From a virus: a stretch of 64,000 bases of DNA. The notes under the pieces are model-generated. The model saw nothing but the letters and a program-made list of their open reading frames with translations, did not search any database and was not told the origin of the DNA. Location: IMG/VR virus record IMGVR_UViG_3300020419_000004; one strand, written 5' to 3'. The position numbers and the translations under genes were made by a program. Shown one piece after another: positions 3,001 to 18,615 of this stretch (positions within the stretch are counted from its first letter, which is position 1; each line of letters starts with the position of its first letter).

Positions 3001-5597
3001 ACTTAACTCCAGCTGCATCTGTTTATGGTAACTACGGTGTATTCAGATTTAGAAAAGACATTGCTAACCAAGCAATTGGTAACCAAGATCAAGGTGGATT
3101 TATTATTGACAATGATGGTCAGGTTTCAATTGACCAAGGTCCAGGATCTGGACTTAACGCTGACTTACTAGATGGTAACGGTGGAGGTTTCTATACTAAT
3201 GCAAGTAACCTAACTCAGGGTACTCTTGCTGCTGCAAGACTAGCAAATACCACATATGCAATATCCATATCTGGTACTGCTGACAAAGCAAACAGAATAT
3301 TCAACGAGTCTGCATCACTAACTTCAAACCCTGCTCCTGCACAGGCATCAGACGGTGTTGGTGCTGCACTAAGAAATAATACTGCTACTGGTCTGAATGA
3401 TGGTGGTACCACACACGGTATCATGACTTACAGAAGACAAGCAACTGGTACTGCTACAACTCAGCTTGGTTTCACTGATAATAATAACCTTTGGGTTAGA
3501 GGTAACAGTGGTGGTAATGCAGTATATGGTAACTGGTATAAGATGTGGTCAGGACTCAACGATGGTGCTGGCAGTGGATTGGATGCTGATAAATTAGATT
3601 CACATCAAGGTTTATGGTATCAGTCTGGTTATAACTTCGGTGCTTCTCAGGGTGGCATCAACAAACCTATGGGTGACATCTTCTTACCTGAGGTTCTTGG
3701 TGAAGACAAGATGGTATTTGAGAACTTCTATCTCAATGATAGTGGACTCAAGTATACATTATACGTTCCAGATTTCCATGTAAGCACAGGTACTGGTGGT
3801 AACGTCAACAATGGTGGTACATACACTATCTACTCTGACGTAGGTGCAACAAACAACATAGGTTCTATCGTAGTTGATGGAGCAGGTGTTCAGGAACTTA
3901 CACACACTTCAGGTGAGATATACTCTCTCATAACTGGTACGATCGCATTTGTTGGTAACAATACCAACGCAAACATATATGTTGTAGGTCCTAACCCAGG
4001 TACTAAGTGGACTGTAACATCATCCAACTTGATCTCTAGTGGTTCTTCCACAGTGATCGGAATGCGTGATGCTGCTGCAGGTGCTAAGTTACAGGTTGGT
4101 AAAGCATCTGTTTCTACAACTCCAACTGTAGACTTCCGTTCTTCAGGACAAGCACCTGAGTACGATGTACAGTTCCTTATTTCTGGTGGTAATACCAACA
4201 ACGGAAATGGTACTATAAGAATTAACACTGGTGATATTACCGTTAATGGTAACACCATGTGGCATGCAGGAAACGATGGTAGTTCCTCACAGCTAGACGC
4301 TCACTACGTAGATGGATTTACTCAATCAACATCTGCTAACGCAAACACACTTGCACGTAGAGATGCATCAGGACACTTAACAGTCAATGACTTAACAGGT
4401 GACCAAGGTATATTCCAGAACACTGGTGCTTCAATATTACAACTTGCTGATGGTAACGGTGTTAACTTAGGTAAGGCAACAACTAACGCTCTATCAATTC
4501 AAGGTAGAAACAGTGCTAGTGTTGGTTACATCCGCTTTGGTAATGACAGTAATAGTTTCGGTTACAATGGAACATATCTAAACTACAATAACGTTACCTT
4601 CCGTAGCGGTAGAGTAGGTATTGGTGATACAAATCCTGGCTCACCTCTTGAGATTGTTGCTGAGGGTAATGCTAGTTCTGCTACTGCATTTGCTGACTTT
4701 AGAGACGGTAGATCAGGATACGGTAGAATAACATTTGGTGCTGACGGATCATCTTCCTTCATGACCTTTACTGATACTGACAACGATATGGGTTGGCAGT
4801 TAGGTGCTGATGATAATGATCAGTCATGGTTTGCTATTAGAAACTTTGCTGATGCTAGTGGTGCATTATCAACATCATTCCAATCAAATGCTAAAGTAAA
4901 TGCAGCGTTAGCAATTTACTCTGCAACTGGTAGAGTATTCATTAACAAAGGATCTGGTGTAAGCACTGGTAGTGGATCACAACTAATGGTTGGTGGTTCA
5001 GTTGAAGCTAGCAGTCAACTTAAATCTACTGTTGCAACTGGTACTGCACCAATCAGTGTTTCATCAACAACTGTATGTACTAACCTTAACGCAGATCTAC
5101 TCGATGGTTATACTGCACTTAACCTTCCATACTTGGGTGCTAGTGTTAACACATGGTTGAATGATGATGGTGGACAACCAAGATTCTACTTTGGTAATAA
5201 CTCTCACACATACTTTAGAACAGGTGACAACTACTACTGGAGATCTGACAATGATACCAGTATGGGTTCATGTGATGGTAACGGTGGTACATGGACATTC
5301 TACTCAGGTAGTGACCAAACACAGACATCTTACAGGGTAGAAGTCAGAGGACAGAACGGATTAAACATCGACAGTGACTCTGTTGGTTTATCAAGTGGTC
5401 AAAGATCTGTTGTACTTCGTGCTAACGGAGACAAGCAGTGGATCGACACATACGGTATTATTAAGAGAAACCGTAATAACATTTCGGAAAACATATCTAT
5501 TAACAATGGGGACAACTGTCAAAGCATTGGTCCTATTACTATAAATAATGGATATACCATTACTATAAATAGCGGTGGATACTGGAGTATCAATTAA
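3..5597 (+). CDS. Large tail fibre / virion structural protein, 5'-truncated by the window edge
   Basis: Frame is open from base 3 (SITVDSAKPECANVVSALTTNW...), so 54 is not the true start. G/S/T/N-rich, with V..I.I..GSGY repeats, four L(N/D)AD.LDG-type fibre motifs and a C-terminal ISENISI...SIGPITI...W.I cap typical of marine phage fibres. Confidence 0.75.
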   Translation, partial: SITVDSAKPECANVVSALTTNWGILDNVLSSGTAYSGTTTVPDPLIQEQDAAKYSFPLLNIFLDLPVIEASPYIQNSSLISFLGGSGCDIDGAKVATPNVPRPGLKLDGLGNSIAQFDPQGKSMVANAFTIICFGGTAYNVSNDGYTQLVSVFAIFCQDGIFCQSGGYASVTNSASNFGTYSLRATGFRAEPYSFDIGVIDSITNDADGNGVENGRQVIQVSGTTLTNIPVEDYIIRIGDTNPTDPAVEHIILETEVVSGAPGTQVVAKITTNRSMDYTLTASPNTRYDYASGNLSGLVGKSIQFHRPSVCNSSSHTWEFSGSGNTYAALPQNGGFGLGTAYEASEQAFGQVYTSGTNEFGDFKVGNFVTIFNRTGNISFVGTVSISELSSIKIVGGDITVTGFSDADTLGGVFASDSLLPTQASVKDYISNNLGPYLNQPYSTNAVPSALVQLTSSGKINIDQIPALRPFNITSVTSEAERLAIENAQAGDIAIQTTATSFSVAPASINTGADTITIASHGANTGDGLTYTQGTTAIGGLSTNTKYFAIKVDDNTIKLATTKSNATNNQIITLSGQGTGTHTFTTDGVAVSYILENDLESQFLAFQPDSNFSFSVGAIVQGSTTTARGTVSAFNDGQIFNFVISDGGGDYTGDFALTIAAPDDAGGTQAAATANVTSGIVTKVTITNAGSGYYTQPTVTAPNSPSNNNAVIAAQIEGRVAINIANNIKFDASDFLLDGANANLGTGTYSQTGSTITVSESGHNLANGALAYLDFTSGQGADGFYAITLVNANEFTVTSATSTSTTGNVSRKRIIDLTRVINTSGSNIANWTQLTSTNIDASNIVAGTVDPERLANKGISNSFTFLRGDSSWEYALQSIRPSTQDAVVIGGSVTDSSYIDTITITNGGTGYTNGTYQNLPLQGGNVSISDAGVARATYIVSGGVITSAQVTDSGTGYTAGFSVTIPSEFGGGNGAILAANKGTINRAFGNIEIDIKKGDNLTPAASVYGNYGVFRFRKDIANQAIGNQDQGGFIIDNDGQVSIDQGPGSGLNADLLDGNGGGFYTNASNLTQGTLAAARLANTTYAISISGTADKANRIFNESASLTSNPAPAQASDGVGAALRNNTATGLNDGGTTHGIMTYRRQATGTATTQLGFTDNNNLWVRGNSGGNAVYGNWYKMWSGLNDGAGSGLDADKLDSHQGLWYQSGYNFGASQGGINKPMGDIFLPEVLGEDKMVFENFYLNDSGLKYTLYVPDFHVSTGTGGNVNNGGTYTIYSDVGATNNIGSIVVDGAGVQELTHTSGEIYSLITGTIAFVGNNTNANIYVVGPNPGTKWTVTSSNLISSGSSTVIGMRDAAAGAKLQVGKASVSTTPTVDFRSSGQAPEYDVQFLISGGNTNNGNGTIRINTGDITVNGNTMWHAGNDGSSSQLDAHYVDGFTQSTSANANTLARRDASGHLTVNDLTGDQGIFQNTGASILQLADGNGVNLGKATTNALSIQGRNSASVGYIRFGNDSNSFGYNGTYLNYNNVTFRSGRVGIGDTNPGSPLEIVAEGNASSATAFADFRDGRSGYGRITFGADGSSSFMTFTDTDNDMGWQLGADDNDQSWFAIRNFADASGALSTSFQSNAKVNAALAIYSATGRVFINKGSGVSTGSGSQLMVGGSVEASSQLKSTVATGTAPISVSSTTVCTNLNADLLDGYTALNLPYLGASVNTWLNDDGGQPRFYFGNNSHTYFRTGDNYYWRSDNDTSMGSCDGNGGTWTFYSGSDQTQTSYRVEVRGQNGLNIDSDSVGLSSGQRSVVLRANGDKQWIDTYGIIKRNRNNISENISINNGDNCQSIGPITINNGYTITINSGGYWSIN

Positions 5598-5609: not shown

Positions 5610-6365
5610 ATGGCTGGCATTTTAAGGGTTGACCAAATCCAAAGTACAGGTGGAAGTAACGTTATAGACGTTTCTTCTGGCTCATTCAAACTCTGGAACG
5701 GAAGTTCATACGAGAGTTTCACTATTGAAGGTGCGTTGATTTCGATGAACGTATACACATCACAGAATGGTACATGGAACAGTAAGTCCACTTCTGGTTC
5801 TTCAGGAACATGGAGTAAACCTTCAGGTTGCAGTAATGTTCTCGTCTACTGCACAGGTGGTGGCGGTGGTGTTCGCTGTAATGACAACTCTTATCGTGGA
5901 GCTGGTGGTGGCGGTGGTGCTACTGCTATCAAATATATTGATGTTTCTAACGTAGGTTCAGTCGGATATACTTATGGTGGTGGCGGTGGATACGCCCGTA
6001 ACGGAGGTAGAGGAGGTACAGGTGGTACTTCATCCTTCGGTTCATACTGCACAGCAGGTGGTGGACAAGGTGGTCAAACCGATAACCCATATCAGGGAGG
6101 TCCTGGTGGATCAGCATCTGGTGGTGATATTAATGTACCTGGCGGTGGTGGTGAGATGTCTCACGGTCACAACAGAGAAGGTGGTGGTGGATCATCATTC
6201 TGGCACAAGGCAGGATCTTCACACCATTATGCCAACAACCAAGAAGAGATTACTCATGGTCAGTGGGGATCTGGTGGAGGATATGGTTATTATTCTCAAA
6301 ACAGTTATGCACACAACAACGGTAACGGTGGTGCAGGCGTAGTTATCGTATTCAATTACACATAA
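5610..6365 (+). CDS. Glycine-rich tail fibre-associated protein
   Basis: N-terminal ILRVDQIQ motif, repeated GGGGG/AGGGQGG tracts and C-terminal GNGGAGVVIVF, as in Gly-rich minor fibre proteins; directly follows the large fibre gene. Confidence 0.65.
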   Translation: MAGILRVDQIQSTGGSNVIDVSSGSFKLWNGSSYESFTIEGALISMNVYTSQNGTWNSKSTSGSSGTWSKPSGCSNVLVYCTGGGGGVRCNDNSYRGAGGGGGATAIKYIDVSNVGSVGYTYGGGGGYARNGGRGGTGGTSSFGSYCTAGGGQGGQTDNPYQGGPGGSASGGDINVPGGGGEMSHGHNREGGGGSSFWHKAGSSHHYANNQEEITHGQWGSGGGYGYYSQNSYAHNNGNGGAGVVIVFNYT

Positions 6366-6370
6366 AGATT

Positions 6371-6736
6371 ATGAGTTTCGCATTAGTAGACAGAGCATCT
6401 AACCAAACTATACAGTTTGTGGTAGAAGAAGAAGAGTGCTTTGAATGTCACGAAGATTTTAAATGGGTAGACATCCCTGACGATTGGGTCATGGAAGAAG
6501 GTACTAACCCTCCTGACTTTAAATGGAATCCTGATACCCAGAAAGTCGAACGTGCTGTGCCGACACCTCTTGGTTGGGAACAGAAAAGAATGTTTGCCTT
6601 TGAAGATATGACGGTTGAGCAGCAGTTAGGAAACCTCTTTGATGATATTGAAGCAGGTGTCTTTGGAGATATACAAGGTAAGAGTAAATTCTATACAGCA
6701 ATAAAAAATATTAAGGAAGCTTATCCTAAGGACTAA
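6371..6736 (+). CDS. Putative tail fibre assembly/chaperone-like protein
   Basis: C-terminal EQQLGNLFDD...FYTAIKNIKEAYPK resembles small proteins that follow fibre genes in marine phages; family recalled, not searched. Confidence 0.45.
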   Translation: MSFALVDRASNQTIQFVVEEEECFECHEDFKWVDIPDDWVMEEGTNPPDFKWNPDTQKVERAVPTPLGWEQKRMFAFEDMTVEQQLGNLFDDIEAGVFGDIQGKSKFYTAIKNIKEAYPKD

Positions 6737-6739
6737 ATC

Positions 6740-8110
6740 ATGTCTCAGTTAAATTCTGGAACCGCACAAGTAAATACTCTAACTACTTCGGGGAGCACAA
6801 TCTCTATCCCGAAGAATATTAGTGTCACTGGTGATATAAACTTCACTGGTACTTTGTTGCAGAACGGAGTTGCTTTTGAAACACTACCCACTCAAAGTCC
6901 TAAGACTGCGGGTGGTATTTTAATGTCTGATGGTGAGAATGCTTTCTGGGGAACCACTCTTGCTGCGGAAGGCGATGTAGGTGGTAACAATAACTTTGGT
7001 TACTACAACTCATCTCCCTCTACAACAACTGGTGCAGGTGGACAGAACCCTACAGTTTCTTCAGGTGATTACCTTCCTTACTCAGGAACAGGTAGTTGGT
7101 ATGACTACAACGGTTCGCAGTATAATATAACAGTCGGTTCAAGTTTTAGATATAGAAGTATATTCACACACTCGTTCTTAGTTGGTGGTTACAGAGGATC
7201 AAACCCATGGAGATCAGTTAACCAATGCTACAACGCAACAGATATTACAATCTCTCGTGGTGACCAGTTAGACCGAGCAGCATCATATGTTGACGGAAAC
7301 TTTGGTGACTTCAACGGATATGTCTATGGTACTGTAAACTCCTACGGTGGTAGTGGTGCTTCAGTATCTAGTGTCAACCTACACACAGGAACTAACAGAA
7401 CATTCGGTCCTAACGGAACACCTGGCCACAGTGATGCATACAACACTACTCCAGATAGTATCGGTGCTTCAATGGATACTTGGGATGGTACTGATGACCC
7501 AGGTTCTGCATCAGGACAAACAACACAGAGAGGATACACCTCAGGTGGTGGTCCTGGATCTATTCAGAGAATGAACTTTATCACTGAGATGTGTACTCGT
7601 CTTGGTAATGGTTTCAGTAACTCAGGTGCTACTGGATCCGAAGGACAGTATAGATGCCATCTATTTGGTGACACAGGTAACTCAAGATATGTAGAATTTA
7701 GTAACGAGTCCGTTAACTCATACTCCTTAAGTGGATGGGGTGGTAACGGATGGAAGAAGAACTTGTCAACTAAGTGGGGTTTCTGCTATCATGGTAACAG
7801 TAACAATGTTACACTACCATGGCTCAAATTTAACGATACCAATAATACATCTATTGGTGGTGCATTTAACCAAGCAGATATTTCATCTGGTGAAGAGAAT
7901 ATGGCAATGGGTCAAGATTGGGGTTATTGTTTAGGTAACTATGCTTCTGGTACAGGTAACTATCAGAACAATAGAACATGGAAACGTTACCATGCAACTG
8001 ATGCTGATGTAGTATTAGGATTTAAAGCAGAACCTAAGGGTCACCAAGGACAGTCCTCTGGATGTTGTTTCACTGGTGCGTTCTCAGTAACAGGATTGAG
8101 GTATCAGTAA
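6740..8110 (+). CDS. Putative virion fibre/adhesin with beta-propeller-like (Kelch-like) repeats
   Basis: N-terminal fibre-like segment (VTGDINFTG...LMSDG..AFW), then repeated aromatic-Gly blades (FLVGGY, GYVYG, GYTSGGG, CHLFG, WGFCYHG, WGYCLGNY). Confidence 0.5.
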   Translation: MSQLNSGTAQVNTLTTSGSTISIPKNISVTGDINFTGTLLQNGVAFETLPTQSPKTAGGILMSDGENAFWGTTLAAEGDVGGNNNFGYYNSSPSTTTGAGGQNPTVSSGDYLPYSGTGSWYDYNGSQYNITVGSSFRYRSIFTHSFLVGGYRGSNPWRSVNQCYNATDITISRGDQLDRAASYVDGNFGDFNGYVYGTVNSYGGSGASVSSVNLHTGTNRTFGPNGTPGHSDAYNTTPDSIGASMDTWDGTDDPGSASGQTTQRGYTSGGGPGSIQRMNFITEMCTRLGNGFSNSGATGSEGQYRCHLFGDTGNSRYVEFSNESVNSYSLSGWGGNGWKKNLSTKWGFCYHGNSNNVTLPWLKFNDTNNTSIGGAFNQADISSGEENMAMGQDWGYCLGNYASGTGNYQNNRTWKRYHATDADVVLGFKAEPKGHQGQSSGCCFTGAFSVTGLRYQ

Positions 8111-8265
8111 TGAGCGAACAAAACACAGGAGATGCAAGAAAGATGTTTTTTAACACAGACCTTGCATCAAAGATAAAGCAAGATCAACAGGATGTAACTA
8201 TTGAAAACCTTAAGGCAGAAATCACTGCCATGAAGAATAGGATTACTGCTCTAGAAAATGCCTGA
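8110..8265 (+). CDS. Small coiled-coil protein (51 aa)
   Basis: ATG at 8110 overlaps the upstream stop (TAATG); heptad C-terminus IENLKAEITAMKNRITALEN. The track start at 8062 is probably too early. Confidence 0.6.
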   Translation: MSEQNTGDARKMFFNTDLASKIKQDQQDVTIENLKAEITAMKNRITALENA

Positions 8266-9193
8266 TAACAAACTCTACATAGAAGAAAAACTTTTTGATG
8301 TTGAATGGAAGAAAAGAATTCCATCCGATCTTATTGAGGATGAGGATTTCCTACGTCCAAAATACGAACCGCAGCATCCACTAGAACTTGAGACTAAGAA
8401 GTTTATAAAAGATAAAGAACGTATCAAGGAAGGTTTCATCTATATGATGATCCACGAAGATGCTCTTAGAACTGCTGGTATCAAACCACACGAGACATCA
8501 TACTTTACGTTGTTCAATTTTTATAACGTCTCAACCATCAAGATGAACAAACTTGTGTTCGAGACTGTAAAGTCTACCTTCAGAAGGTACGTTGAACTTG
8601 ATGAAAAAGAATTCACTACTGGAGTTAAGTTCCAAGGTGAGATACGCTCACACTTCAAAGACTATGAAGCTGTGATGCAAGATGATGGATCCTTAGACTA
8701 TGAGAAGGTAAAGAAAAAGACTGTACCTGAACATATAAATCTTGCTGTACAGTTCATGAAGAAGCAAGCAATCTTAGTTATTGAACATGAGTTTGATCTT
8801 AGGTTCAAGAACTTTAAGAACTGCTGTGACGTAGAGTCTGAGAGTTGGGTATACCAACTTGAAGAAGCAAGAAAATACAAGGAGAGTGAGGAAGCTAAAA
8901 CTCCTTTCCTAGATATATTATGCATGACAAGAGGTATGCAGAAGGCAGAACTTGTAAAAAGGGTTCTCAAAAACCATGATAAATACCTTATAGATTACGC
9001 CTCATTATTAGGCAAATATCATGCGATACGTTCCCAGTTTAGAAACTGTGAAAATATGTGGGATATGAACATCTTGTACGAAGACTACTTGAATGTTGGT
9101 ATGCCAATCAAGCAAGGTCAGAAACTTGGCCGAATTGATGAAAATGAAAAGCGACTTGATGGAGATTTAGCATATGGCACTTTCGGATTCTGA
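8258..9193 (+). CDS. Hypothetical protein with C-terminal tail-fibre-assembly-like domain
   Basis: 311-aa ORF; E.ESW..Q..EA...TPFL..L...RG....LV..V pattern resembles tail fibre assembly proteins of temperate phages. Confidence 0.5.
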   Translation: MPDNKLYIEEKLFDVEWKKRIPSDLIEDEDFLRPKYEPQHPLELETKKFIKDKERIKEGFIYMMIHEDALRTAGIKPHETSYFTLFNFYNVSTIKMNKLVFETVKSTFRRYVELDEKEFTTGVKFQGEIRSHFKDYEAVMQDDGSLDYEKVKKKTVPEHINLAVQFMKKQAILVIEHEFDLRFKNFKNCCDVESESWVYQLEEARKYKESEEAKTPFLDILCMTRGMQKAELVKRVLKNHDKYLIDYASLLGKYHAIRSQFRNCENMWDMNILYEDYLNVGMPIKQGQKLGRIDENEKRLDGDLAYGTFGF

Positions 9194-9974
9194 TGCACTC
9201 TGTAGGCAAAACCTAGAAGGAAATAAAAAGACTTGGGTTGAAGCTGCTTACAAATTAGAAGGCGGTCAGTCGAAATACCAAAACCAGAATTTTGTAGTTG
9301 GTTCACAAATAACACCATATAAGAAAGTGCAGCAAGCACTTCTCGAACTCCAGACGAGGGATAATACTCGTGTGGAAGTGGAGTATAGTCTTAAGAAAAA
9401 CGAGATCAATAGACGGATGTTGTTGAGAGACTTGAATGCAACTGAAGATGACCTTGAACAAGAACTGATACAACTAGAAATAGATAAGTCAGATTATGAC
9501 AGATCTCTATTCGTAGAGAAACTAAAGACAGTCAACAAAGAAATGGATGTCTTTATAGCAGAACTTGAAGAGAATGTAGATAGATCAAAAGGTATAGAGT
9601 ACTATCTTGTTACCAATGAGGAAGAAGATAGGAAGTACTGGCAGAGTAGAATGGCAAAACAGGCTGCATGTGATATAATTGCATTTGGTCGTCTTGGTGC
9701 AGGTAACATGGATTCAATTATGAATCTACCTGAGCAAGATCAAGTCAACATCCTATCTGGTGCAGTACATCATTCTGCACTGATAGGTGCAGGTGTCCAA
9801 CACATGACACAGCAAATGGAGGGTACCTGCAATGGTCTCCTCAATGGTGATAAGTTCTCACCACCACAAATTAATGGTTCGGAATTAACTGACCGCCTCC
9901 CAGAGGTGCCCACATTACCTGAAGTGAAACATGAAATCCCCAAAGAGAAAATCCGTCTTCAGTCTTCCAATTAA
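9174..9974 (+). CDS. Hypothetical coiled-coil protein
   Basis: 266-aa ORF overlapping both neighbours; long E/K/L-rich helical segment after FVVGSQITPYKKVQQALLEL. Confidence 0.6.
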   Translation: MALSDSDALCRQNLEGNKKTWVEAAYKLEGGQSKYQNQNFVVGSQITPYKKVQQALLELQTRDNTRVEVEYSLKKNEINRRMLLRDLNATEDDLEQELIQLEIDKSDYDRSLFVEKLKTVNKEMDVFIAELEENVDRSKGIEYYLVTNEEEDRKYWQSRMAKQAACDIIAFGRLGAGNMDSIMNLPEQDQVNILSGAVHHSALIGAGVQHMTQQMEGTCNGLLNGDKFSPPQINGSELTDRLPEVPTLPEVKHEIPKEKIRLQSSN

Positions 9975-11694
9975 TCCTAAGATTGATTCCAAGTATGCAG
10001 ACACGGTTTTTGTACCTTGGTTGAAGACATATAAAGATTATATTAGCGACTTATATTTTACCTGTCGTATGCCACCATTCACCCAAGACTCAATGGGTGA
10101 TGTATTTCAAGGTGATGTAAGGCAATTGTATTATAATGCGAAAGCAATATCAGAAGATGCTGGTGACATACCACTGTCTGCTACATTCAATAACATATAC
10201 ATTAGACCAGACCTAGAAAATCTAGACCTGTTCGTAAAGAACTTTGGTCAGTTGTATGATCAAGGTATCAAGATTGCAACCATACCACACACCAGTTGGG
10301 TTAGCACTGGTATATTACAGAAAGAATTTCCAGAACTAAAGATCAAGAATACTATACTTAGGAATGTCACAAAGGCAAATGAAGTAGTAGCTCTTGCTAA
10401 GGCAGGTTTTCATTACATCAATCTAGATAGAGATTTGATGAGAGATAAGGAAGCGTTGAAGAAGATAAAGAAAGCAAAGGAATATTGTGCTGAGATAGGT
10501 AAACCTGTAGAGTTATCCATTCTAACTAACGAGGGTTGTTGGGGTGGTTGCTCTATGATGGATGAGCATTACCATTTTAATAATACAAGGACAGAGATGA
10601 CCCCTCAGTATTTTAATGATCCTATCAGTACCCACTCTTGTTCACTATGGGATATAGAAGATAACTCTCATGCTCTAAAGTCAGCTAACCTACCTCCTTG
10701 GAGAGAGGATTGGGAAGAGTTCTTAGACCTAGGTATAGATGTATTCAAGATGCATGGTAGAGAAAATGCCATGAAACTAATGGAATCTATGCAAATGATA
10801 GAAGCATGGGCATCTGAAAATGAATTGGTAACAGGTGAATTTAAGGAGTACATGGAAGATCTTGCAGTACCAGATAGTCCTATTGCTCTATGGAGAGAAA
10901 AGATAAAGACATGTGGTTTTGACTGTTGGGATTGTAACTATTGTGAGAACGTTGTCAATGCACACCTCAAGAAACAAGGTAGACCAACTACAGTTGATGA
11001 TTATACTCAGAGAGTATTGGATGCTATAATCGCTGGCAATACCAACACATCTAATTTTGTACCAGACAAATATAGTATTCAAGGACTGTCCTCCAATAGG
11101 ATAAGACATTTCCTTAATAGTCTTTGTTCTCATGATGATGCAGTCTATCTTGAACTTGGTACCTTCATTGGTAGTACGTTCTTTGCTGCTACCATGGGTA
11201 ATAAAGCAAAGTGTTTTGGTGTAGATGACTTCTCAGAACCCAATGTTAAACCTATAGTTGATCGTGGTCAGTGGACTGAGTGTGGTAATCCATACGATAC
11301 CTTAGTTACTAACTGGAAAAAGTATGAGAATGGTAATGCTACATTTGTTAAAGCAAGTGTGGACGAACTAACTGAAGAAGACTTTGAAGGTAGTAAACCC
11401 AACATCTTGTTTTATGACGCAGATCATGATATGATGCAACAGATGAACAATCTTAATCATCTGCTACCCTTCATGGATGACAAGTTCATACTTGTTGTTG
11501 ACGATGCCAACTTTGATGGTGTTGTAGAGGGAGCAGTAACATGGGCTCAAGAGAACAACTTACAGTGTTACCTTGAAAGAAAGATCCTAAGTAGTGTCAT
11601 AGAAAGTCCAGTCCACTGGTGGAATGGAATTCATGTTATGGTTTTACAAAAGGACGCAAGAGTAAAAGAATACATTAGTGGGAACGGATTATGA
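9931..11694 (+). CDS. Peptidase U32-like (Fe-S hydroxylase-like) domain fused to a class I SAM-dependent methyltransferase
   Basis: U32-like motifs NLDRDL, ILTNEGC203WGGC207, HSC237, FK273MHGRE and a C328-C332-C335-C338 cluster. C-terminal methyltransferase motifs YLE408LGT, GVDDF, FYD496ADH, VVD524D. Confidence 0.65.
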   Translation: MKSPKRKSVFSLPINPKIDSKYADTVFVPWLKTYKDYISDLYFTCRMPPFTQDSMGDVFQGDVRQLYYNAKAISEDAGDIPLSATFNNIYIRPDLENLDLFVKNFGQLYDQGIKIATIPHTSWVSTGILQKEFPELKIKNTILRNVTKANEVVALAKAGFHYINLDRDLMRDKEALKKIKKAKEYCAEIGKPVELSILTNEGCWGGCSMMDEHYHFNNTRTEMTPQYFNDPISTHSCSLWDIEDNSHALKSANLPPWREDWEEFLDLGIDVFKMHGRENAMKLMESMQMIEAWASENELVTGEFKEYMEDLAVPDSPIALWREKIKTCGFDCWDCNYCENVVNAHLKKQGRPTTVDDYTQRVLDAIIAGNTNTSNFVPDKYSIQGLSSNRIRHFLNSLCSHDDAVYLELGTFIGSTFFAATMGNKAKCFGVDDFSEPNVKPIVDRGQWTECGNPYDTLVTNWKKYENGNATFVKASVDELTEEDFEGSKPNILFYDADHDMMQQMNNLNHLLPFMDDKFILVVDDANFDGVVEGAVTWAQENNLQCYLERKILSSVIESPVHWWNGIHVMVLQKDARVKEYISGNGL

Positions 11695-11768
11695 GTGCAT
11701 GGTATGTTATAGGTTGGACTATAGTTACACTATGGTTACTGACTAAGTTAGGTGTATTTAAAAAATGA
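11691..11768 (+). CDS. 25-aa single-pass membrane peptide (not in ORF track)
   Basis: MSAWYVIGWTIVTLWLLTKLGVFKK*; ATGA overlaps at both ends fill the gap exactly. Confidence 0.6.
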   Translation: MSAWYVIGWTIVTLWLLTKLGVFKK

Positions 11769-12475
11769 AGGTAATAAATCCTGAGTTATTGCAAACTCAT
11801 CACCCTAAGGACTGGGAGATAGAGCAATTACATATTGGCAATGCAAAGAATAGGATCATTAAGATCAAAAATTTCTTTCAGAACCCAGAACAGGTAAGAG
11901 CATATGCACTAGCAACTGATTATGTTAATACAGTTGGTGGTCAATTTTCTAATCTACCTGGTTATGTGTGCAAGTTAGGACACATAGCAAATCAGTTCTA
12001 CCCTAACTTCAAGTTCTTATTGGCAACTTACTTTGAAGCTGATAAGAAGATCATGCTTCAACCAGAGTTCTCCCACTTTACATTTCAAATGTATGAGGTA
12101 CAGGAGAAATGTAGGATGTGTAGTCTAGCACCGCATACTGATGACACTCACTATGCTGCTGTTCTATCATTAAATTTCGATGAAGAGTTGATGGAGACTT
12201 CATCGGGCACTGCATTCTGGAGAAGTAAAGAGTTCAAAGAGGAGTATGTCTCCTCTGACAAGAACTATAGAACTTCTAGACTAGCTAACAAAGTCAATGC
12301 CTTTGTTAATTTTGACCCATCACAATACAAAACTAAAGACTGGGAGAGGTATCATGTTGAGAAGCATGAATTCAATTCTCTGCTAGTATATGAAGGAAGA
12401 CTATGGCATTCACCATACTTTCAACAAAGTGGATGGGATACAAACCGTCTAACCTTCAATGCATTTCTGCACTAA
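11765..12475 (+). CDS. 2OG-Fe(II) oxygenase (DUF6445-like)
   Basis: IIKIKNFFQNP.. start, H-x-D motif (PHTD), FNSLLVYEGRLWHS distal His, RLTFNAF end. Confidence 0.75.
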   Translation: MKVINPELLQTHHPKDWEIEQLHIGNAKNRIIKIKNFFQNPEQVRAYALATDYVNTVGGQFSNLPGYVCKLGHIANQFYPNFKFLLATYFEADKKIMLQPEFSHFTFQMYEVQEKCRMCSLAPHTDDTHYAAVLSLNFDEELMETSSGTAFWRSKEFKEEYVSSDKNYRTSRLANKVNAFVNFDPSQYKTKDWERYHVEKHEFNSLLVYEGRLWHSPYFQQSGWDTNRLTFNAFLH

Positions 12476-13113: not shown

Positions 13114-16100
13114 GTGTCAATACTAATGAAGCGAGTCATCGTCAGGGTAGCTGATAGATATAGTTTGGATTCAGCAGTTGCAGGAATCCTAAAAACATAT
13201 GGATATCTAACCTTTGTAACATCCTATAGAAGTTTTTCAATCATAACGTTCGATTGTCCAGAGAAGTATTCTACTGGCATGATCGAGAAGTTACGAGCTC
13301 TTTCGGTTGTCAAGAAAGTCTCATGGGATGAAGCAGATAAGTTTTCTCTTGATCCTGTAGATACAGGTGCGTTAACAGTTGAGACCAGTGGGTCAACCAG
13401 TTTAAATAATACTGGTGAAACAAACGCCCAATCAAATACTAGAAATTTAACAGGTAGTGGTGGTGGTACCATATTTGTAAAGGTGCAGAATATTTCTGGA
13501 TCTAACTACTACACCTTCTCAGCAAGTGCAGGTGGTACATACTCAAGATATAATAACCAAACTGGTTTCCTACAAGGATCCACTTATACATTTGATCAGT
13601 CAGACCCTTCAAACGCGACTCATCCATTAAGATTTTCAGTAGACCCAGACGGACCTCACACCTCTGGTGGTAGTCAAATGACTACAGGTGTTACTGTAAC
13701 TGGTACACCAGGTCAGGCAGGTGCACAAGTAGAAATAGTTATTGGTACATCTACACCATCTATTCTTTATTACTACTGTACTGCTCACAGTGGAATGGGA
13801 CGATATGGTGCTGCTCCAGATAGGTTTGGTACAATCAACGTTCATGACTATTGGCATCTAGATAGAATTTCAAAACAAGACAGGCAATATTTAAACGGAC
13901 AGTTTAGTTTCAGTCATTCAGGAGACGGTGTAGATATCTACGTTCTTGACACAGGTGTGCGTGGAGCAAGTAGACCAACAGGTAACAACGCAGCTCTTCA
14001 CCCTGAGTTATACGATCCAGACTTCGTATCTGACTTGAATGGTACTTCAGAGCAACAGAACTATAGGGTATACGAGGTTACTGGATACACAAGTCCATAT
14101 AGTACTAACGAAGATGACAACGGACACGGTACATATTGTGCAATTATGTCAGCTGGAAGAACGGCTGGTATAAGTAGGAACGCCAAAATCTATGCACTTA
14201 AGTGTTTTAACAGTGGGTTATCAGGTAGCTATACTGATATCCTAGGTGCTTATCAGGCAGTCATAGATCATAATGATAGTGGTAATGCCAATTATAAAGG
14301 TAATAATCGTCCAGCTGTAATCAACTCATCATTCGGACCTACCATTCCTACAGAGTCATATCCATATGTCGAACTAAACGACAGTGGTGATGACAGTGGT
14401 ACTGACGAAGAGATCCTAGATGACATCGAGGGTACTATTGCTGGTACAAAAAATCTGATTATAGTCAGGTCAGCTGGTAACGGTTTTAAGAATTCTAGTG
14501 ATGGATTTGCAGGACCTATACAAGGTAAGATGATTGCAGGTACTAGAACTGCAGGTTATTCTGACAATACTAATGGTGGTGTCAACTATACAGATACCAA
14601 CCAGAATAAGATCGCTGTTGGTGCATCTGAATATAATGACAGGTGGGCAGACTTCTCTAACTATGGTGCAGGTGTAACTACAGTAGCACCAGGTGCCAGA
14701 TTGCTTACACCAGCATATGACTGGACTGCTAATACTCCATATACAAGTGCTGCAAACTATCAGACGATTGCAGGTACATCATTCTCAGGTCCTTTAGTTG
14801 CAGGTATCATTGCTGCATGGTGTGGGAAGAATGGATATACGTTAACTACAAATAATTTACCTGGTCTTGCTAAGACCTTTATGAGAACTGGTGGAGTCAC
14901 TGGAGATATAACAAGAGGTGCAACAGCAAACTATCCTACTAATAGTATTGATGATAAAAGACTTATAGACAACCCATATGAAACTTTAGCTGGATCCTCA
15001 TTCCTTGTAGTTAAGTTTGATCCTGCAGACAACTCACACTTCATAGGTAACGTAGGTAAAAAATGTCAGTTAAGAGCAACTGGATCTACTGCAGGTGCTG
15101 GTGGAACTGCTGCTTCAACATTTAATATAACAACGACTGCACCTAGTTCGTCATACTACACCCTAAGTGGAACTGATAGAAATGGTGCTGTTAGTGGTAA
15201 CAATGCAGGTGTCACTGTCTATGTTGGGGATACTATTAATTTCAATCTATCATCTGTCAGTGGTTCTCATCCATTCTATATCAAGAGTGTACAAGGAACT
15301 GGAACTGGTAATCAAGTATCCACACCAACTGCTACTGGACAAGGATCTACAGGAACCACAACAGTATCATGGGTACCAAATACAGTAGGAACATACTACT
15401 ATCAATGCTCTGCACACAATGGAATGAATGGAACTATCACAGTTTCATCTGCACCTGGTGGTAGTGGTGGAGTTACCGTTGGTGGTATAGATGTATCTGG
15501 ATTAGCACAAAGTGGATGGTTAACTATTCAGGCAGAGAATGCTGTCAATAATACTATCACGGTTCAGAACACAACTAATGCTACAGCTGGTACAACTGGT
15601 GGTGGTACTGGAAACTATCTTGCACTTGTAGATCCTGAAAGTAAAACACATGAAAGTATTGATGGTGTTGTTTCTAGATCAGTAACTTTAAGATCTCAAA
15701 CCGACACACAGGAAGCTGCAGGTACTGGTACATATACTAATGTAGTTTACTATCCATTAGATAGTGGTGTTGACTTTGACTATTCAGGAACAGGTCCTTC
15801 ACTAACCACTAAGCGTGGTGCATTCTTCCCCTTTGTTGATACCAATGTAACTTGGGCAACTGGTGCAGGTAGTATTGGTGGTCCATTTGCTAATGGTGCT
15901 TCTGTAAGTATTGACTTAGGTTTGACTGGTACAACCTTTGCATCAGAACCAACGTTTGAAGCATATACTCTCAGTGGAGATAGTATTGCAGCGTCTGGAC
16001 TAGGATTAGATACTGCAACAGGTATTTTAAGTGGAACAGTTACAGCAGATTATCTTGACACATCATTCAACTTCACTGTAACTGAGAACACTACAGGAAA

Positions 16101-18615
16101 CGCACAATCATATAACTTTACAACAACTGGAACTGGTGTTCTAGTTACAATCACACAGCAACCAACTGCAACGAGTGTTGAAGCGGGTTCTGGAAACACT
16201 GCTACCTTCGGTCCTGTATCAGGTATTAGTTCTGATGGATCTACAATCCTATTCCAATGGGAGTTCTCAAGTAACGGTGGAGCAGGTTGGTCTAACGTTG
16301 CTAACAGTGGTGGATATAGTGGAGCAACTACTAACACTCTAACTGTTGATGATGACTTTTTAAAGAATACTTATCAGTTCCGTTGTAAGATGGAAACTAG
16401 TACTTCTGTTGCACCATCTTATACTAATGCAGTTGTTCTAACAGTATTCAGAGTTATTACTATAAGCAATCAACCAACTAATCAACAACCTATGGCACCA
16501 GCTGCTGCTACCTTTACAGTTGCTGCTAGTACTGCAGATTCTGCAGTTGTCTCATATGCTTGGGAGAAATCTGAGAGTGGAGATGGAGTAACTTACACTC
16601 CTATAACTGGAGCAACCAGTGCATCATATACTACAGATGCTACAACATATGACGCTGACTTTGGCGACTACTATCGTTGTGTACTCTCATGTTCAGGAGC
16701 ATCAAACGTAATTAGTAGTGTTGCTCAAAACTTAGTACAAAGAAGTATTAGTATAACTGCACAACCAACTAACACAACTGGTGCTGTAGGTGGTACAGAA
16801 AGTTTCGGTGTTACTGCTACTACATCTGATAATGATGCAGGTGACATCACATACCAGTGGCAAGTATCAATAACTTCTGGTGCTTCATGGTCTAATGTAT
16901 CCACAGGAACTGGTGGTACAACAGCAACATATACTACTGCTACATTAACTACAACAGAAGACGGGTATCAATATCGTTGTTTACTTTCAGCAGCAGGTGC
17001 AACGCAGGTTCCATCTAATGCTGCTACATTACAAATAGAAACCGTTGCGGTAGTAGTATCATCACAACCATCTGATGCAACAGTTGAGGAAACTCAAACA
17101 GCAACATTCACAACACTTGGTGGTGTTACTATGTCACCTGTTGGTGGTAACGCTGCACAATCTTCATTCGAGGTAGATCAGTTTGATACGCCTAGTGGTG
17201 GAGGTGGAGGTTCTGCAGGTGGACAATCTGCTCATGAACCTAGCGTCACATATCAGTGGGAGAAATCTGATGATGGTGGTGGTGCTTGGGCATCAGTTGG
17301 TGGAGCAACCTCTGCTTCATATACAACTGCAGCGACAACATATGCTGTAGATCATAACGATCAGTATCGTTGTGTGATCAGTGCAGTGGGTGCTTCAACT
17401 CCTGCAACAACCAATGCTGTTACCTTAACAGTTCAAAGAACATTCTCTATTACAGCACAACCATCAAACGCTACTGCTAATGAAGGTGGAACTGCAACCT
17501 TTGCAGTAACCACATCTACAAGTAGTGGAACTACAACCTACCAGTGGGAAAGATCTGATGATGGTGGAGTAAACTATGTGACTGTAGGTGGGGCAACCAG
17601 TGCATCATATACAACTCCAACCTTAGTATATGCTAATGATGGCAGTGATCGTTATCGTTGTGTAACATCTCTTGTTGGTTCTGCTGCAGATATAACTTCT
17701 AACTTTGCAGTATTAACTGTTTTACGTGTCATAACAATTCAAACTCAACCACAGTCACAGGCTGTTATTGAGGGTGGCACTGCAACATTTAATATTGGAG
17801 CACAGATTACTAGTGATGTAATCTCATACCAGTGGCAGAAATCTACTGACAATGCAGTTTCATTTAATGCTGTCAATGGTGCAAATGCAGCAACTTACAC
17901 AACACCTGCAACAACATATCCAACATCACCATCAGAACAATTCCGTTGTGTATTAACTAACGCAGCTGCTACCACTGTTACTTCTAGTGCTGCAACACTA
18001 ACAGTCAATGAATCAGAATTTGTATCAGCACCTGCATCAGTAAGTCCATTCATTGATCCAGATACAACTAAGACTCTTTCAAGACAACCTGTCATCAGCA
18101 CAGCAGCATTTGTTTCTGAGTATGCAGGATCAACTCACTTCTCTAGTTTCTGGAGAATTAGAAGAGTTGTAGATAACGTGACAGTGTATGATACAGTTCA
18201 GACATTTGCTGGTGGTGATACTGGTAATTTAACATCATTAACTGTACCAAGTGGCACACTTGAGTTTGATAAAGCATACTCTGTACAGGTTAAGTTCAGA
18301 GATAACTCTGGTCTAGAAAGTGCTTATACAGCAGCAGTCACTTTCACAACACCATTTGTAGATCAACCAGACATTCAGACTATCACACCAGCATTCAACC
18401 CAACAATCAATGTTGATCCAATCCAATTGAAGAGTGGTTATCAGCATTCATCTAGTGATTGGCAGTTTGCTACTACGTCTGCATTCAGCACAATCGTTCA
18501 CCAATCTCTTGGTAACTCAACAAACTTAACACAATACACACTACCAGGTGCTGTAAACCTCAGTTCTAATACTACATATTATGTAAGAATTAGATTCAAC
18601 GTTAATCCTACCTAA
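13114..18615 (+). CDS. Large virion-associated S8 (subtilisin-like) serine protease with cupredoxin-like, Ig-like and FN3-like domains
   Basis: Catalytic D279 (VLDTG), H338 (GHGT), N456 (SAGN), S556 (GTSFSGP); two H...C-x2-H-x2-M motifs; six QP...YQW...Y.C Ig-like repeats. Start could be GTG 13114 or ATG 13126. Confidence 0.8.
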   Translation: MSILMKRVIVRVADRYSLDSAVAGILKTYGYLTFVTSYRSFSIITFDCPEKYSTGMIEKLRALSVVKKVSWDEADKFSLDPVDTGALTVETSGSTSLNNTGETNAQSNTRNLTGSGGGTIFVKVQNISGSNYYTFSASAGGTYSRYNNQTGFLQGSTYTFDQSDPSNATHPLRFSVDPDGPHTSGGSQMTTGVTVTGTPGQAGAQVEIVIGTSTPSILYYYCTAHSGMGRYGAAPDRFGTINVHDYWHLDRISKQDRQYLNGQFSFSHSGDGVDIYVLDTGVRGASRPTGNNAALHPELYDPDFVSDLNGTSEQQNYRVYEVTGYTSPYSTNEDDNGHGTYCAIMSAGRTAGISRNAKIYALKCFNSGLSGSYTDILGAYQAVIDHNDSGNANYKGNNRPAVINSSFGPTIPTESYPYVELNDSGDDSGTDEEILDDIEGTIAGTKNLIIVRSAGNGFKNSSDGFAGPIQGKMIAGTRTAGYSDNTNGGVNYTDTNQNKIAVGASEYNDRWADFSNYGAGVTTVAPGARLLTPAYDWTANTPYTSAANYQTIAGTSFSGPLVAGIIAAWCGKNGYTLTTNNLPGLAKTFMRTGGVTGDITRGATANYPTNSIDDKRLIDNPYETLAGSSFLVVKFDPADNSHFIGNVGKKCQLRATGSTAGAGGTAASTFNITTTAPSSSYYTLSGTDRNGAVSGNNAGVTVYVGDTINFNLSSVSGSHPFYIKSVQGTGTGNQVSTPTATGQGSTGTTTVSWVPNTVGTYYYQCSAHNGMNGTITVSSAPGGSGGVTVGGIDVSGLAQSGWLTIQAENAVNNTITVQNTTNATAGTTGGGTGNYLALVDPESKTHESIDGVVSRSVTLRSQTDTQEAAGTGTYTNVVYYPLDSGVDFDYSGTGPSLTTKRGAFFPFVDTNVTWATGAGSIGGPFANGASVSIDLGLTGTTFASEPTFEAYTLSGDSIAASGLGLDTATGILSGTVTADYLDTSFNFTVTENTTGNAQSYNFTTTGTGVLVTITQQPTATSVEAGSGNTATFGPVSGISSDGSTILFQWEFSSNGGAGWSNVANSGGYSGATTNTLTVDDDFLKNTYQFRCKMETSTSVAPSYTNAVVLTVFRVITISNQPTNQQPMAPAAATFTVAASTADSAVVSYAWEKSESGDGVTYTPITGATSASYTTDATTYDADFGDYYRCVLSCSGASNVISSVAQNLVQRSISITAQPTNTTGAVGGTESFGVTATTSDNDAGDITYQWQVSITSGASWSNVSTGTGGTTATYTTATLTTTEDGYQYRCLLSAAGATQVPSNAATLQIETVAVVVSSQPSDATVEETQTATFTTLGGVTMSPVGGNAAQSSFEVDQFDTPSGGGGGSAGGQSAHEPSVTYQWEKSDDGGGAWASVGGATSASYTTAATTYAVDHNDQYRCVISAVGASTPATTNAVTLTVQRTFSITAQPSNATANEGGTATFAVTTSTSSGTTTYQWERSDDGGVNYVTVGGATSASYTTPTLVYANDGSDRYRCVTSLVGSAADITSNFAVLTVLRVITIQTQPQSQAVIEGGTATFNIGAQITSDVISYQWQKSTDNAVSFNAVNGANAATYTTPATTYPTSPSEQFRCVLTNAAATTVTSSAATLTVNESEFVSAPASVSPFIDPDTTKTLSRQPVISTAAFVSEYAGSTHFSSFWRIRRVVDNVTVYDTVQTFAGGDTGNLTSLTVPSGTLEFDKAYSVQVKFRDNSGLESAYTAAVTFTTPFVDQPDIQTITPAFNPTINVDPIQLKSGYQHSSSDWQFATTSAFSTIVHQSLGNSTNLTQYTLPGAVNLSSNTTYYVRIRFNVNPT

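Follow-up and report, generated by a model that had tools for sequence, protein, structure and literature searches.

We examined a gene located at positions 9931-11694 (+ strand) of a 64,000-nucleotide stretch of viral DNA (hereafter, the window) taken from IMGVR_UViG_3300020419_000004, a 129-kb IMG/VR record of a T4-like cyanomyovirus whose closest isolates are the Synechococcus phages S-CAM4 and ACG-2014j. The gene, known as T4-GC 354 or PHROG 1458, codes for a protein of 587 amino acids (aa) in which a U32-like N-terminal domain is fused to an O-methyltransferase. An earlier note, made from the sequence alone, had described this open reading frame (ORF) as a U32-type hydroxylase joined to a class I methyltransferase using S-adenosylmethionine (SAM). 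The ORF is indeed present in the ORF list and in its translation, and the residues quoted in that note all lie where it had placed them, namely C45, E201-G-C203-x3-C207, C237, K273-M-H-G-R277-E, and C328/C332/C335/C338 in the N-terminal part, and E408-L-G-T, D496-A-D-H499, and D523-D524 in the methyltransferase. The features of the gene are as follows (counts out of 71 refer to an alignment of relatives described below):

9931..11694, + strand: U32-like/O-methyltransferase fusion gene, T4-GC 354 / PHROG 1458, 587 aa (ORF list and translation).
9943..10779, + strand: predicted U32-type TIM barrel, residues 5-283 (VIA-align to 5d88; hhalign to RlhA, 88.7%; weak collinear PF01136 matches).
10531..10641, + strand: E201-G-C203-x3-C207 ... 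E212-H213 ... C237, cysteine triad after strand 6, candidate iron-sulfur (Fe-S) site (70/71; hhalign).
10747..10761, + strand: K273-x-x-G276-R277, at the end of the last barrel strand (conservation; hhalign to the U32 "KIEGR").
10912..10944, + strand: C328-x3-C332-x2-C335-x2-C338, Cys4 knot in the helical extension after the barrel (71/71).
11047..11667, + strand: predicted COMT-like cation-dependent class I O-methyltransferase, residues 373-579 (PF13578; structural matches; motifs).

The fusion gene is not a chance ORF, since tblastn found it, or its U32-like part, in 126 phage records (123 cyanophages and three Ralstonia jumbo phages, the latter carrying the N-domain only), and a word-based protein search returned over 1,800 homologs, the majority of them from marine metagenomes. 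The protein is matched by phrog_1458 (E 1.9e-229) and shares 66% amino-acid identity with its S-CAM4 and ACG-2014j versions. PHROG 1458 is classified as "unknown function", and the GenBank label is "hypothetical protein" in every record that we inspected. T4-GC 354 is listed as "Hypothetical-Protein" in 5 of 16 cyanomyovirus genomes in the supplement of Sullivan et al. 2010 (PMC3037559); T4-GC 351-354 are not discussed in the main text of that paper and are listed, as hypothetical, in its supplement alone. Our literature search found no paper linking U32 proteins to phages or cyanophages or describing the T4-GC 354 gene, and an NCBIfam scan of the protein gave no match.

As for the initiation codon, the ORF and the gene before it overlap by 44 nucleotides. 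We consider the start at 9931 to be correct because conservation extends over the first 54 residues, which contribute the first unit of the barrel: residues 2-54 are conserved in the tblastn alignments, they make up the first strand-helix-strand of the barrel in the structural model, with a predicted local distance difference test (pLDDT) score above 90, and the structural alignment to a U32 protein begins at residue 5. The GenBank records of S-CAM4 and P-SSM4, as well as the PHROG 1458 profile, begin at the equivalent of M55, so that part of the fold is cut off (truncated-annotation segments: 9931-10092 of the window, L001 6001-6156, and L013 6001-6135); the annotation of P-HM2 uses the long form of the gene.

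The fold of the N-terminal domain was modelled with AlphaFold, which gave a pLDDT of 93.7 and a predicted TM-score (pTM) of 0.92 for residues 1-360 and a pLDDT of 90.6 for the full-length protein (AF2). We aligned the N-domain model exhaustively with VIA-align to all 48,161 cluster representatives of the Protein Data Bank (PDB), among which the U32 protein Mk0906 (5d88) ranked first, with a Z-score of 16.6 and a root-mean-square deviation (rmsd) of 3.2 Å for 227/247 residues aligned; after it come generic TIM barrels, with Z-scores of at most 12.5, more than 4 Z units lower. The top structural match of the full-length model is likewise 5d88. In the Foldseek list ordered by E-value, generic TIM barrels stand above 5d88, which comes 15th, yet no entry in that list has a higher TM-score (0.71 by target) or a lower rmsd; the exhaustive VIA-align comparison settled the ranking. 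When Foldseek was run on the two-domain model, it also returned pyruvate kinase and PRMT5-type matches, which we set aside as "barrel plus Rossmann" artefacts.

An exhaustive HMMER search of 1.84 billion representatives yielded 277 relatives, and our conservation counts are based on an alignment of 71 near full-length relatives with at most 50% mutual identity. Sequence searches of the PDB, either with the single protein or with the 71-sequence profile, returned nothing useful. We then compared this profile by hhalign with a U32 template profile built from E. coli TrhP, RlhA, UbiU, and UbiV and obtained probabilities of 70% with TrhP as the first template sequence (E 4e-5), 88.7% with RlhA first (E 2.6e-6), 41% with UbiU leading, and 8% with UbiV leading; with a template of four sequences, the values are on the conservative side and not entirely stable. 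The alignment pairs the near-invariant residues D40, N87, P134, R167, and K273-x-x-G276-R277 with U32 motifs in order, the motifs matched being the N of strand 2, S/D-R-E/D-L, and K-I-E-G-R. In the ESM Atlas, one of the three nearest clusters (scores 0.92-0.94) is 86% viral and automatically named "Peptidase U32 (Fragment) family protein", and the other two have PF01136 on 20% of their members; the U32 link had, therefore, not gone wholly unseen, at least as an automatic name on some viral relatives. In BFVD, the first match beyond the protein's own family (rank 4) is a "Peptidase" of Escherichia phage OLB35. Judged by its modelled structure, by profile alignment, and by its language-model neighbours, the N-domain is a divergent member of the U32 superfamily. 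Membership in the radical SAM superfamily was also considered and rejected: PF04055 was not matched in the Pfam scans, the CX3CX2C-type motif (residues 328-335) comes after the barrel, and the best fold is U32.

The alignment of relatives sorts the residues quoted in the earlier note into those that characterize the family and those that do not. Each cysteine of the triad (C203, C207, and C237) is kept in 70 of the 71 homologs, and the four cysteines of the knot (C328, C332, C335, and C338) are kept in all of them. C45, which had been counted in the same signature, is found in only 14 and was rejected as a family-wide cluster ligand; nor does the signature follow the canonical U32 pattern. E201 (67/71) and H213 (69/71) are also conserved, and E212 and D270 are near-invariant. 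Similarly, the quoted "KMHGRE" motif is retained only for K273 (70/71), G276 (69/71), and R277 (70/71), as H275 and E278 vary among homologs; the resulting K-x-x-G-R falls on the U32 "KIEGR" in the hhalign runs led by TrhP, UbiU, and RlhA.

In characterized U32 proteins, [4Fe-4S] binding was shown for UbiU, through C169, C176, C193, and C232, and for UbiV, through C39, C180, C193, and C197 (PMC6747719), and C170 and C177 of TrhP are essential (PMC6599085). One hhalign run places C203/C207/C237 of the phage protein on UbiU C176/C193/C232, and another places C203/C207 on TrhP C193/C197. The triad thus sits, as far as alignments can tell, on the loop where U32 proteins bind [4Fe-4S], and we regard it as a candidate cluster site. 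The Cys4 knot falls outside the region aligned to 5d88; it may give a fourth ligand or hold a second cluster or zinc.

The C-terminal domain passes the Pfam threshold for PF13578 (Methyltransf_24), with 28.1 bits against a cut-off of 26.3 (E 4e-6, residues 407-525) when the whole protein is scanned and 30.1 bits when the domain is scanned alone. Its closest structures are all cation-dependent O-methyltransferases: MeT1 (6g80, Z 16.4), a Desulfuromonas O-methyltransferase (8c9v, Z 16.4), TrmR (5zw3, Z 16.0), TomG (5n5d, Z 16.0), SafC (Z 15.4), and mammalian COMT (Z about 14.5); a sequence search against the PDB gave no methyltransferase match. The modelled fold is that of an O-methyltransferase of the COMT/CCoAOMT type, and the tied Z-scores, including that of TrmR, which is level with MeT1, TomG, and others, pick no substrate class. 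Among the 16 aligned fused homologs (>520 aa), 14 have a methyltransferase C-terminus, and these share E408-x-G410...G414, D432, D496-x-[D/N]-H499, D523-D524-x-N526, and a WWNG motif near the C-terminus. By their position, D496, D523-D524, and N526 are probable metal ligands. The earlier description of an intact class I methyltransferase is borne out by the profile score, by the motifs kept in these 14 homologs, and by the COMT/TrmR-like fold, and we consider it highly probable that the identities of both domains are right.

The other two fused homologs (P0006 and P0009) have a different C-terminal part, with a DUF7483 in P0006; the barrel is, therefore, the constant element, whereas the fused tailoring domain varies. 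A search for stand-alone relatives of the methyltransferase domain returned mostly partial-domain proteins or very short contigs, with no informative names, and this domain is found essentially only as a fusion with the U32-like barrel.

Compared with COMT, CCoAOMT, MeT1, TomG, and SafC (Methyltransf_24/Methyltransf_3), the phage domain has the same Rossmann fold, the E-x-G-x-x-x-G SAM loop, and acidic residues where strands 4 and 5 end (D496, D523/D524, and N526 in the phage domain), but differs by its conserved WWNG. His499 presumably stands where CCoAOMT-type enzymes have their catalytic Lys.

The fusion gene is the last of a block, T4-GC 351-352-353-354, that is conserved in P-SSM4, P-HM2, S-CAM4, and the present phage and is located among tail-fibre and neck genes. 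The other features of this block and its surroundings are as follows:

5540..5571, + strand: two T4-late-promoter-like TATAAATA boxes (at 5540 and 5564), suggestive of promoters, ahead of the co-directional block 5610-12475.
6740..8110, + strand: T4-GC 351, 456 aa, "sericin-like" fibre-like protein, candidate substrate (translation; 123 phage records).
8258..9193, + strand: T4-GC 352, 311 aa, phrog_1604, part of the conserved block (103 phage records).
9174..9974, + strand: T4-GC 353 / phrog_1409, 266 aa, helical, directly upstream of the fusion gene with the 44-nucleotide overlap (co-occurrence).
11765..12475, + strand: DUF6445 protein, 236 aa, with an H124-x-D126 ... H215 pattern (PF20043, E 2.4e-16).

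Upstream of the block lie a Gly_rich_2 "tail fibre" protein and a small gene. T4-GC 351 is rich in Gly, Ser, Asn, and Thr, with many Tyr and Trp and a fibre-like N-terminus. The TATAAATA box occurs four times in the window, which is the number expected by chance, so it is by their position that the two boxes listed suggest promoters.

The gene directly upstream of the fusion gene, phrog_1409, has a distribution identical to that of the U32-like gene, i.e., the same 126 records (77 Synechococcus, 38 "Cyanophage", 8 Prochlorococcus, and 3 Ralstonia), and T4-GC 353 is present in the same 5 of 16 cyanomyovirus genomes as T4-GC 354 (Sullivan et al. 2010 supplement, PMC3037559). In Ralstonia phage RP31, ORF137 is a phrog_1409 homolog (BLASTP E 3e-17; phrog_1409 E 9.5e-67) located directly upstream of ORF136, a stand-alone U32-like protein, which is followed by an overlapping gene for a DUF401/CitMHS-type membrane protein, ORF135 (L002 4371-7056); a collagen-like fibre protein and a virion protein are encoded nearby. 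A 6.4-Mb bacterial contig (L021) carries, in this order, a 1,511-aa DUF2341/Laminin_G_3 protein, a phrog_1409 homolog (hidden Markov model (HMM) E 5e-32), a 229-aa protein, a U32-like protein, and a DUF401 protein that is 36% identical to RP31 ORF135 (E 6e-58); here, the phrog_1409 homolog is two genes upstream of the U32-like gene. From their shared distribution, their adjacency in RP31, and the L021 homolog, we conclude that the helical protein and the U32-like enzyme form a conserved pair across distant phages and bacteria. The helical protein has no enzyme signature; it may belong to the enzyme as a subunit, direct it to its target, or act as a chaperone. An HMM search for phrog_1409 in the metagenomic contexts L005-L007 and L015-L019 found none. 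RP31 (L002 4371-7056) and L021 (6473-10180) share a three-part module made of phrog_1409, a seven-Cys U32-like barrel, and a DUF401-CitMHS protein.

The U32-like family is also found in other genomic contexts, of which the most telling is L020 (3-9287), where a GLUG-repeat protein, a Sulfotransfer_3 protein, two tandem U32-like paralogs (each with the full set of seven cysteines), a 258-aa protein, a GNAT protein, a TauE protein, a protein of the 3'-phosphoadenosine-5'-phosphosulfate (PAPS)-reductase family, and a CysN/CysC fusion are encoded in this order. The cluster resembles a hydroxylate-and-sulfate tailoring system that brings its own supply of PAPS. A sulfotransferase, like an O-methyltransferase, needs a hydroxyl acceptor, and the L020 cluster and the cyanophage fusion are two independent arrangements that pair the barrel with a hydroxyl-capping enzyme, which fits a scheme in which a hydroxyl is made and then derivatized.

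Two other contexts, L005 and L006, encode a Gly_rich_2 protein, a 170-aa protein, a 428-aa U32-like protein, and, directly downstream of the latter, a Trp-halogenase-family protein (PF04820, E 6e-105; L005 2692-4488, L006 3320-4363). The halogenase gene prnA is among the genes found in 6 cyanomyovirus genomes by Sullivan et al. 2010; no halogenase gene was found in the present phage record. Radical SAM genes are encoded near the U32-like gene in L019, together with a giant protein (>2,100 aa; Big_5, PPC, and CopC domains); in P0008, where the radical SAM gene overlaps the U32-like gene from upstream; and in L016 (79-5341), an operon that holds three of them with one U32-like gene and two paralogous proteins of 313-337 aa carrying a "D-V-D" motif. 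By eye, these paralogs look like GT8-type glycosyltransferases, without a Pfam match. In L015, the gene immediately preceding the U32-like one codes for a 1,128-aa He_PIG protein. Repetitive surface or fibre proteins of large size seem to recur in most contexts, among them the cyanophages, RP31, L005/L006, L015, L019, L020, and L021. A 579-aa relative in L007 (1558-3297) has a 230-residue N-terminal extension with a C-x2-C-x5-C-type motif CKKCSIYRICKGY, and its gene is near a Maf/MptE-like flagellin-glycosylation-type gene and an acetyltransferase gene.

How does the phage protein compare with known systems? With the U32 family (TrhP/YegQ, RlhA/YdcP, UbiU/UbiV, and Mk0906, 5d88), it shares the TIM-barrel fold, a K-x-x-G-R corresponding to KIEGR, the R of an S-R-E-L-type motif, and cysteines on the loop that follows strand 6, the [4Fe-4S]-binding site of U32 proteins (PMC6747719). 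It differs from this family in having three cysteines rather than four on that loop (CX3CX29C), plus the invariant CX3CX2CX2C knot after the barrel; in being below the Pfam threshold, devoid of Peptidase_U32_C, and fused to a methyltransferase; and in being paired with the helical phrog_1409 protein rather than with a second U32 subunit. Indeed, it is present in a single copy, and no second U32-like gene was found in the phage record. The N-domain of T4-GC 354 is, thus, best described as a new distant branch of U32 with a seven-cysteine signature, unseen by Pfam and fused to a methyltransferase in cyanophages. The RP31 ORF137-136-135, L020, and L021 cassettes resemble the cyanophage arrangement by their seven-Cys U32-like domain and a nearby fibre/adhesin-type gene, as well as, in RP31 and L021, by the phrog_1409 partner; unlike in cyanophages, their U32-like domain stands alone, without a fused methyltransferase, and is followed by a DUF401 gene or present in tandem copies with a sulfotransferase. 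Lastly, the earlier note had drawn an analogy with Bacillus subtilis, where trhP1 and trhP2 are encoded beside trmR, and this analogy is correct: the trmR-trhP2-trhP1 (yrrMNO) operon makes mo5U34 (5-methoxyuridine at position 34) in tRNA (PMC6599085). In both cases, a U32-type enzyme and a COMT-like SAM O-methyltransferase are encoded together, whereas the phage version is a single polypeptide with no sign of RNA binding and a fibre-module setting.

Taken together, these data suggest that the gene product may be a bifunctional tailoring enzyme. By analogy with UbiU/UbiV, TrhP, and RlhA, the U32-like barrel would bind an Fe-S cluster and hydroxylate an aromatic or heteroaromatic carbon without O2, the oxygen donor probably being prephenate, as proposed for UbiU/V, TrhP, and RlhA (PMC10990095). 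The COMT-like metal-dependent domain would then use SAM to methylate the new hydroxyl, giving a methoxy group; the fusion of the two domains argues that both activities share one substrate. The enzyme would work with the helical T4-GC 353 / phrog_1409 protein encoded just upstream, and its likeliest target would be a virion fibre or adhesin-type protein of the same late gene block, such as T4-GC 351, or a group attached to it; the gene context leads us to favour such a fibre or surface protein over tRNA. We lean slightly towards the hydroxylate-then-cap chemistry, an analogy with characterized U32 systems, and give the whole chain, from Fe-S hydroxylation through O-methylation to a fibre/adhesin target, a little less than an even chance; that the substrate is specifically a protein is doubtful. 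We rate a broader proposal as unlikely: cyanomyoviruses, Ralstonia jumbo phages, and some bacteria would share a module in which a seven-Cys U32 enzyme, guided by the phrog_1409 protein, hydroxylates aromatic residues of fibres or adhesins without O2, the hydroxyl being then O-methylated in cyanophages or O-sulfated in L020.

A number of points weigh against a U32-type hydroxylase acting on fibres. The PF01136 (Peptidase_U32) profile gives the N-domain only 13.3 bits (E 0.05, residues 128-184), which fails the gathering threshold of 22.4, with another weak match, at residues 260-284, that is collinear with it, and not one of the 71 aligned relatives reaches PF01136 at E <0.01, so that by sequence score the N-domain is a separate family. 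The earlier U32 assignment, therefore, stands for the fold and the collinear profile matches and falls for PF01136 membership by score. The cysteine pairing differs among the three hhalign runs, which leaves the correspondence to the U32 ligands ambiguous, and the spacing, CX3CX29C plus CX3CX2CX2C, departs from the canonical CX6CX15CX3/4C (PMC6747719). Hydroxylation in vitro is yet to be shown for any U32 member (PMC10990095, PMC6599085). As for the substrate, neighbouring genes provide correlative evidence, and genes for large surface proteins are frequently found as neighbours; in some relatives, the surroundings include radical SAM enzymes or the DUF401 membrane protein, a possible sign that the substrate is a small molecule. 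To our knowledge, no U32 enzyme acts on a protein. Moreover, the hosts are oxygenic phototrophs, for which an O2-independent route has no obvious advantage.

These points leave room for other explanations. The barrel might not be a hydroxylase: it could carry out radical or redox chemistry through the C-terminal CX3CX2C(X2C) motif, with the cluster site behind the barrel, act as a peptidase in the processing of Gly-rich collagen-like fibres, or have a structural or chaperone role, with the methyltransferase working independently. CX3CX2C is the consensus spacing of radical SAM enzymes and is matched by the cysteines that follow the barrel, the Cys pattern of the protein is unlike that of canonical U32 proteins, and relatives of the gene often adjoin radical SAM genes. 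The Gly-rich and collagen-like neighbours, along with the old "U32 collagenase" label, would suit a peptidase, and U32 proteins still await direct proof of hydroxylase activity (PMC10990095); on the other hand, the peptidase activity of U32 proteins is doubted in recent literature (PMC6747719), the best fold is U32 by a clear margin and not a radical SAM or ThiC-type barrel, and the residues conserved with U32 proteins (K-x-x-G-R, the D/R motifs, and the Cys loop) argue for shared chemistry. The O-methyltransferase fusion and the parallel with the sulfotransferase both call for a hydroxyl acceptor. We find a barrel that is not a hydroxylase unlikely.

If the barrel is a hydroxylase, it may act on nucleic acids, hydroxylating C5 of a pyrimidine in RNA or phage DNA so that the fused domain would make a 5-methoxy base (mo5U/mo5C). 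The only U32 proteins with known macromolecular targets do act on RNA pyrimidines (TrhP on tRNA U34 and RlhA on 23S rRNA C2501; PMC6599085), the trmR-trhP operon is an exact two-gene precedent, and a dCTP deaminase is encoded about 4 kb away in RP31. In the structural comparison of the C-domain, TrmR (Z 16.0) shares the top places, but it is tied with sugar, catechol, and natural-product O-methyltransferases; the Pfam scans show no RNA-binding or Peptidase_U32_C domain, no tRNA gene was found in the window, and the gene lies in a fibre/neck structural block instead of among nucleotide-metabolism genes. As for its bacterial and metagenomic relatives, the neighbours are not RNA genes but surface-protein genes and those of a sulfotransferase, a halogenase, and radical SAM enzymes. 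We rate a nucleic-acid target as improbable. We judge in the same way an auxiliary metabolic role in which a soluble or lipid aromatic compound (quinone, phenolic, or indole) would be hydroxylated and O-methylated, in the manner of UbiU/UbiV with UbiG. No U32 hydroxylases are better characterized than UbiU and UbiV, whose products undergo O-methylation (PMC6747719, PMC10990095). Small catechols are the usual substrates of COMT-like enzymes, an overlapping DUF401/CitMHS-type gene follows the U32-like gene in RP31 and in the bacterial chromosome, and one relative has a Trp-halogenase-like neighbour. Nevertheless, the cyanophage gene is inside the fibre block with no transporter or pathway genes beside it, its conserved partner is a helical protein without enzyme signature, and fibre/adhesin genes recur in unrelated contexts.

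Whatever the substrate, the family to which the barrel is related is a large one, whose proposed O2-independent, prephenate-dependent hydroxylase chemistry has been recognized only recently and whose known substrates number just three (tRNA U34, 23S rRNA C2501, and ubiquinone precursors). The U32-like/O-methyltransferase gene is abundant in ocean viromes, as the number of homologs found attests, and the helical partner and the fibre-gene setting offer concrete candidates. A tail-fibre target would mean a new kind of virion modification, with possible effects on how the main viruses of Prochlorococcus and Synechococcus adsorb and on their host range; were the target a protein, it would be the first protein substrate of the U32 family, with a new post-translational modification of receptor-binding fibres. 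If the target is a nucleic acid, a new phage base modification would be at stake. For either target, a soluble single-chain enzyme could be convenient for reconstituting U32 chemistry in vitro.

Downstream of the fusion gene, the DUF6445 protein may possibly be a 2-oxoglutarate (2OG)/Fe(II) oxygenase, in view of its His and Asp pattern; a PDB sequence search with this protein gave no match, and a literature search on DUF6445 found nothing relevant. Its gene also follows the fusion gene in S-CAM4, while P-SSM4 has denV there instead. The earlier note had seen in this nearby oxygenase an echo of the TrhO/TrhP pairing; TrhO is a rhodanese-family enzyme and not a 2OG oxygenase (PMC6599085), which reduces the comparison to a loose analogy. 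In S-CAM4, the fusion and DUF6445 genes overlap, so there is no gap between them; in the window, the gap is filled by a 25-codon ORF, MSAWYVIGWTIVTLWLLTKLGVFKK (11691-11768, + strand), which overlaps both neighbours by ATGA and codes for one hydrophobic helix. Further downstream, after the block, lies an ORF of 1,833 aa with a GTG start (13114-18615, + strand).

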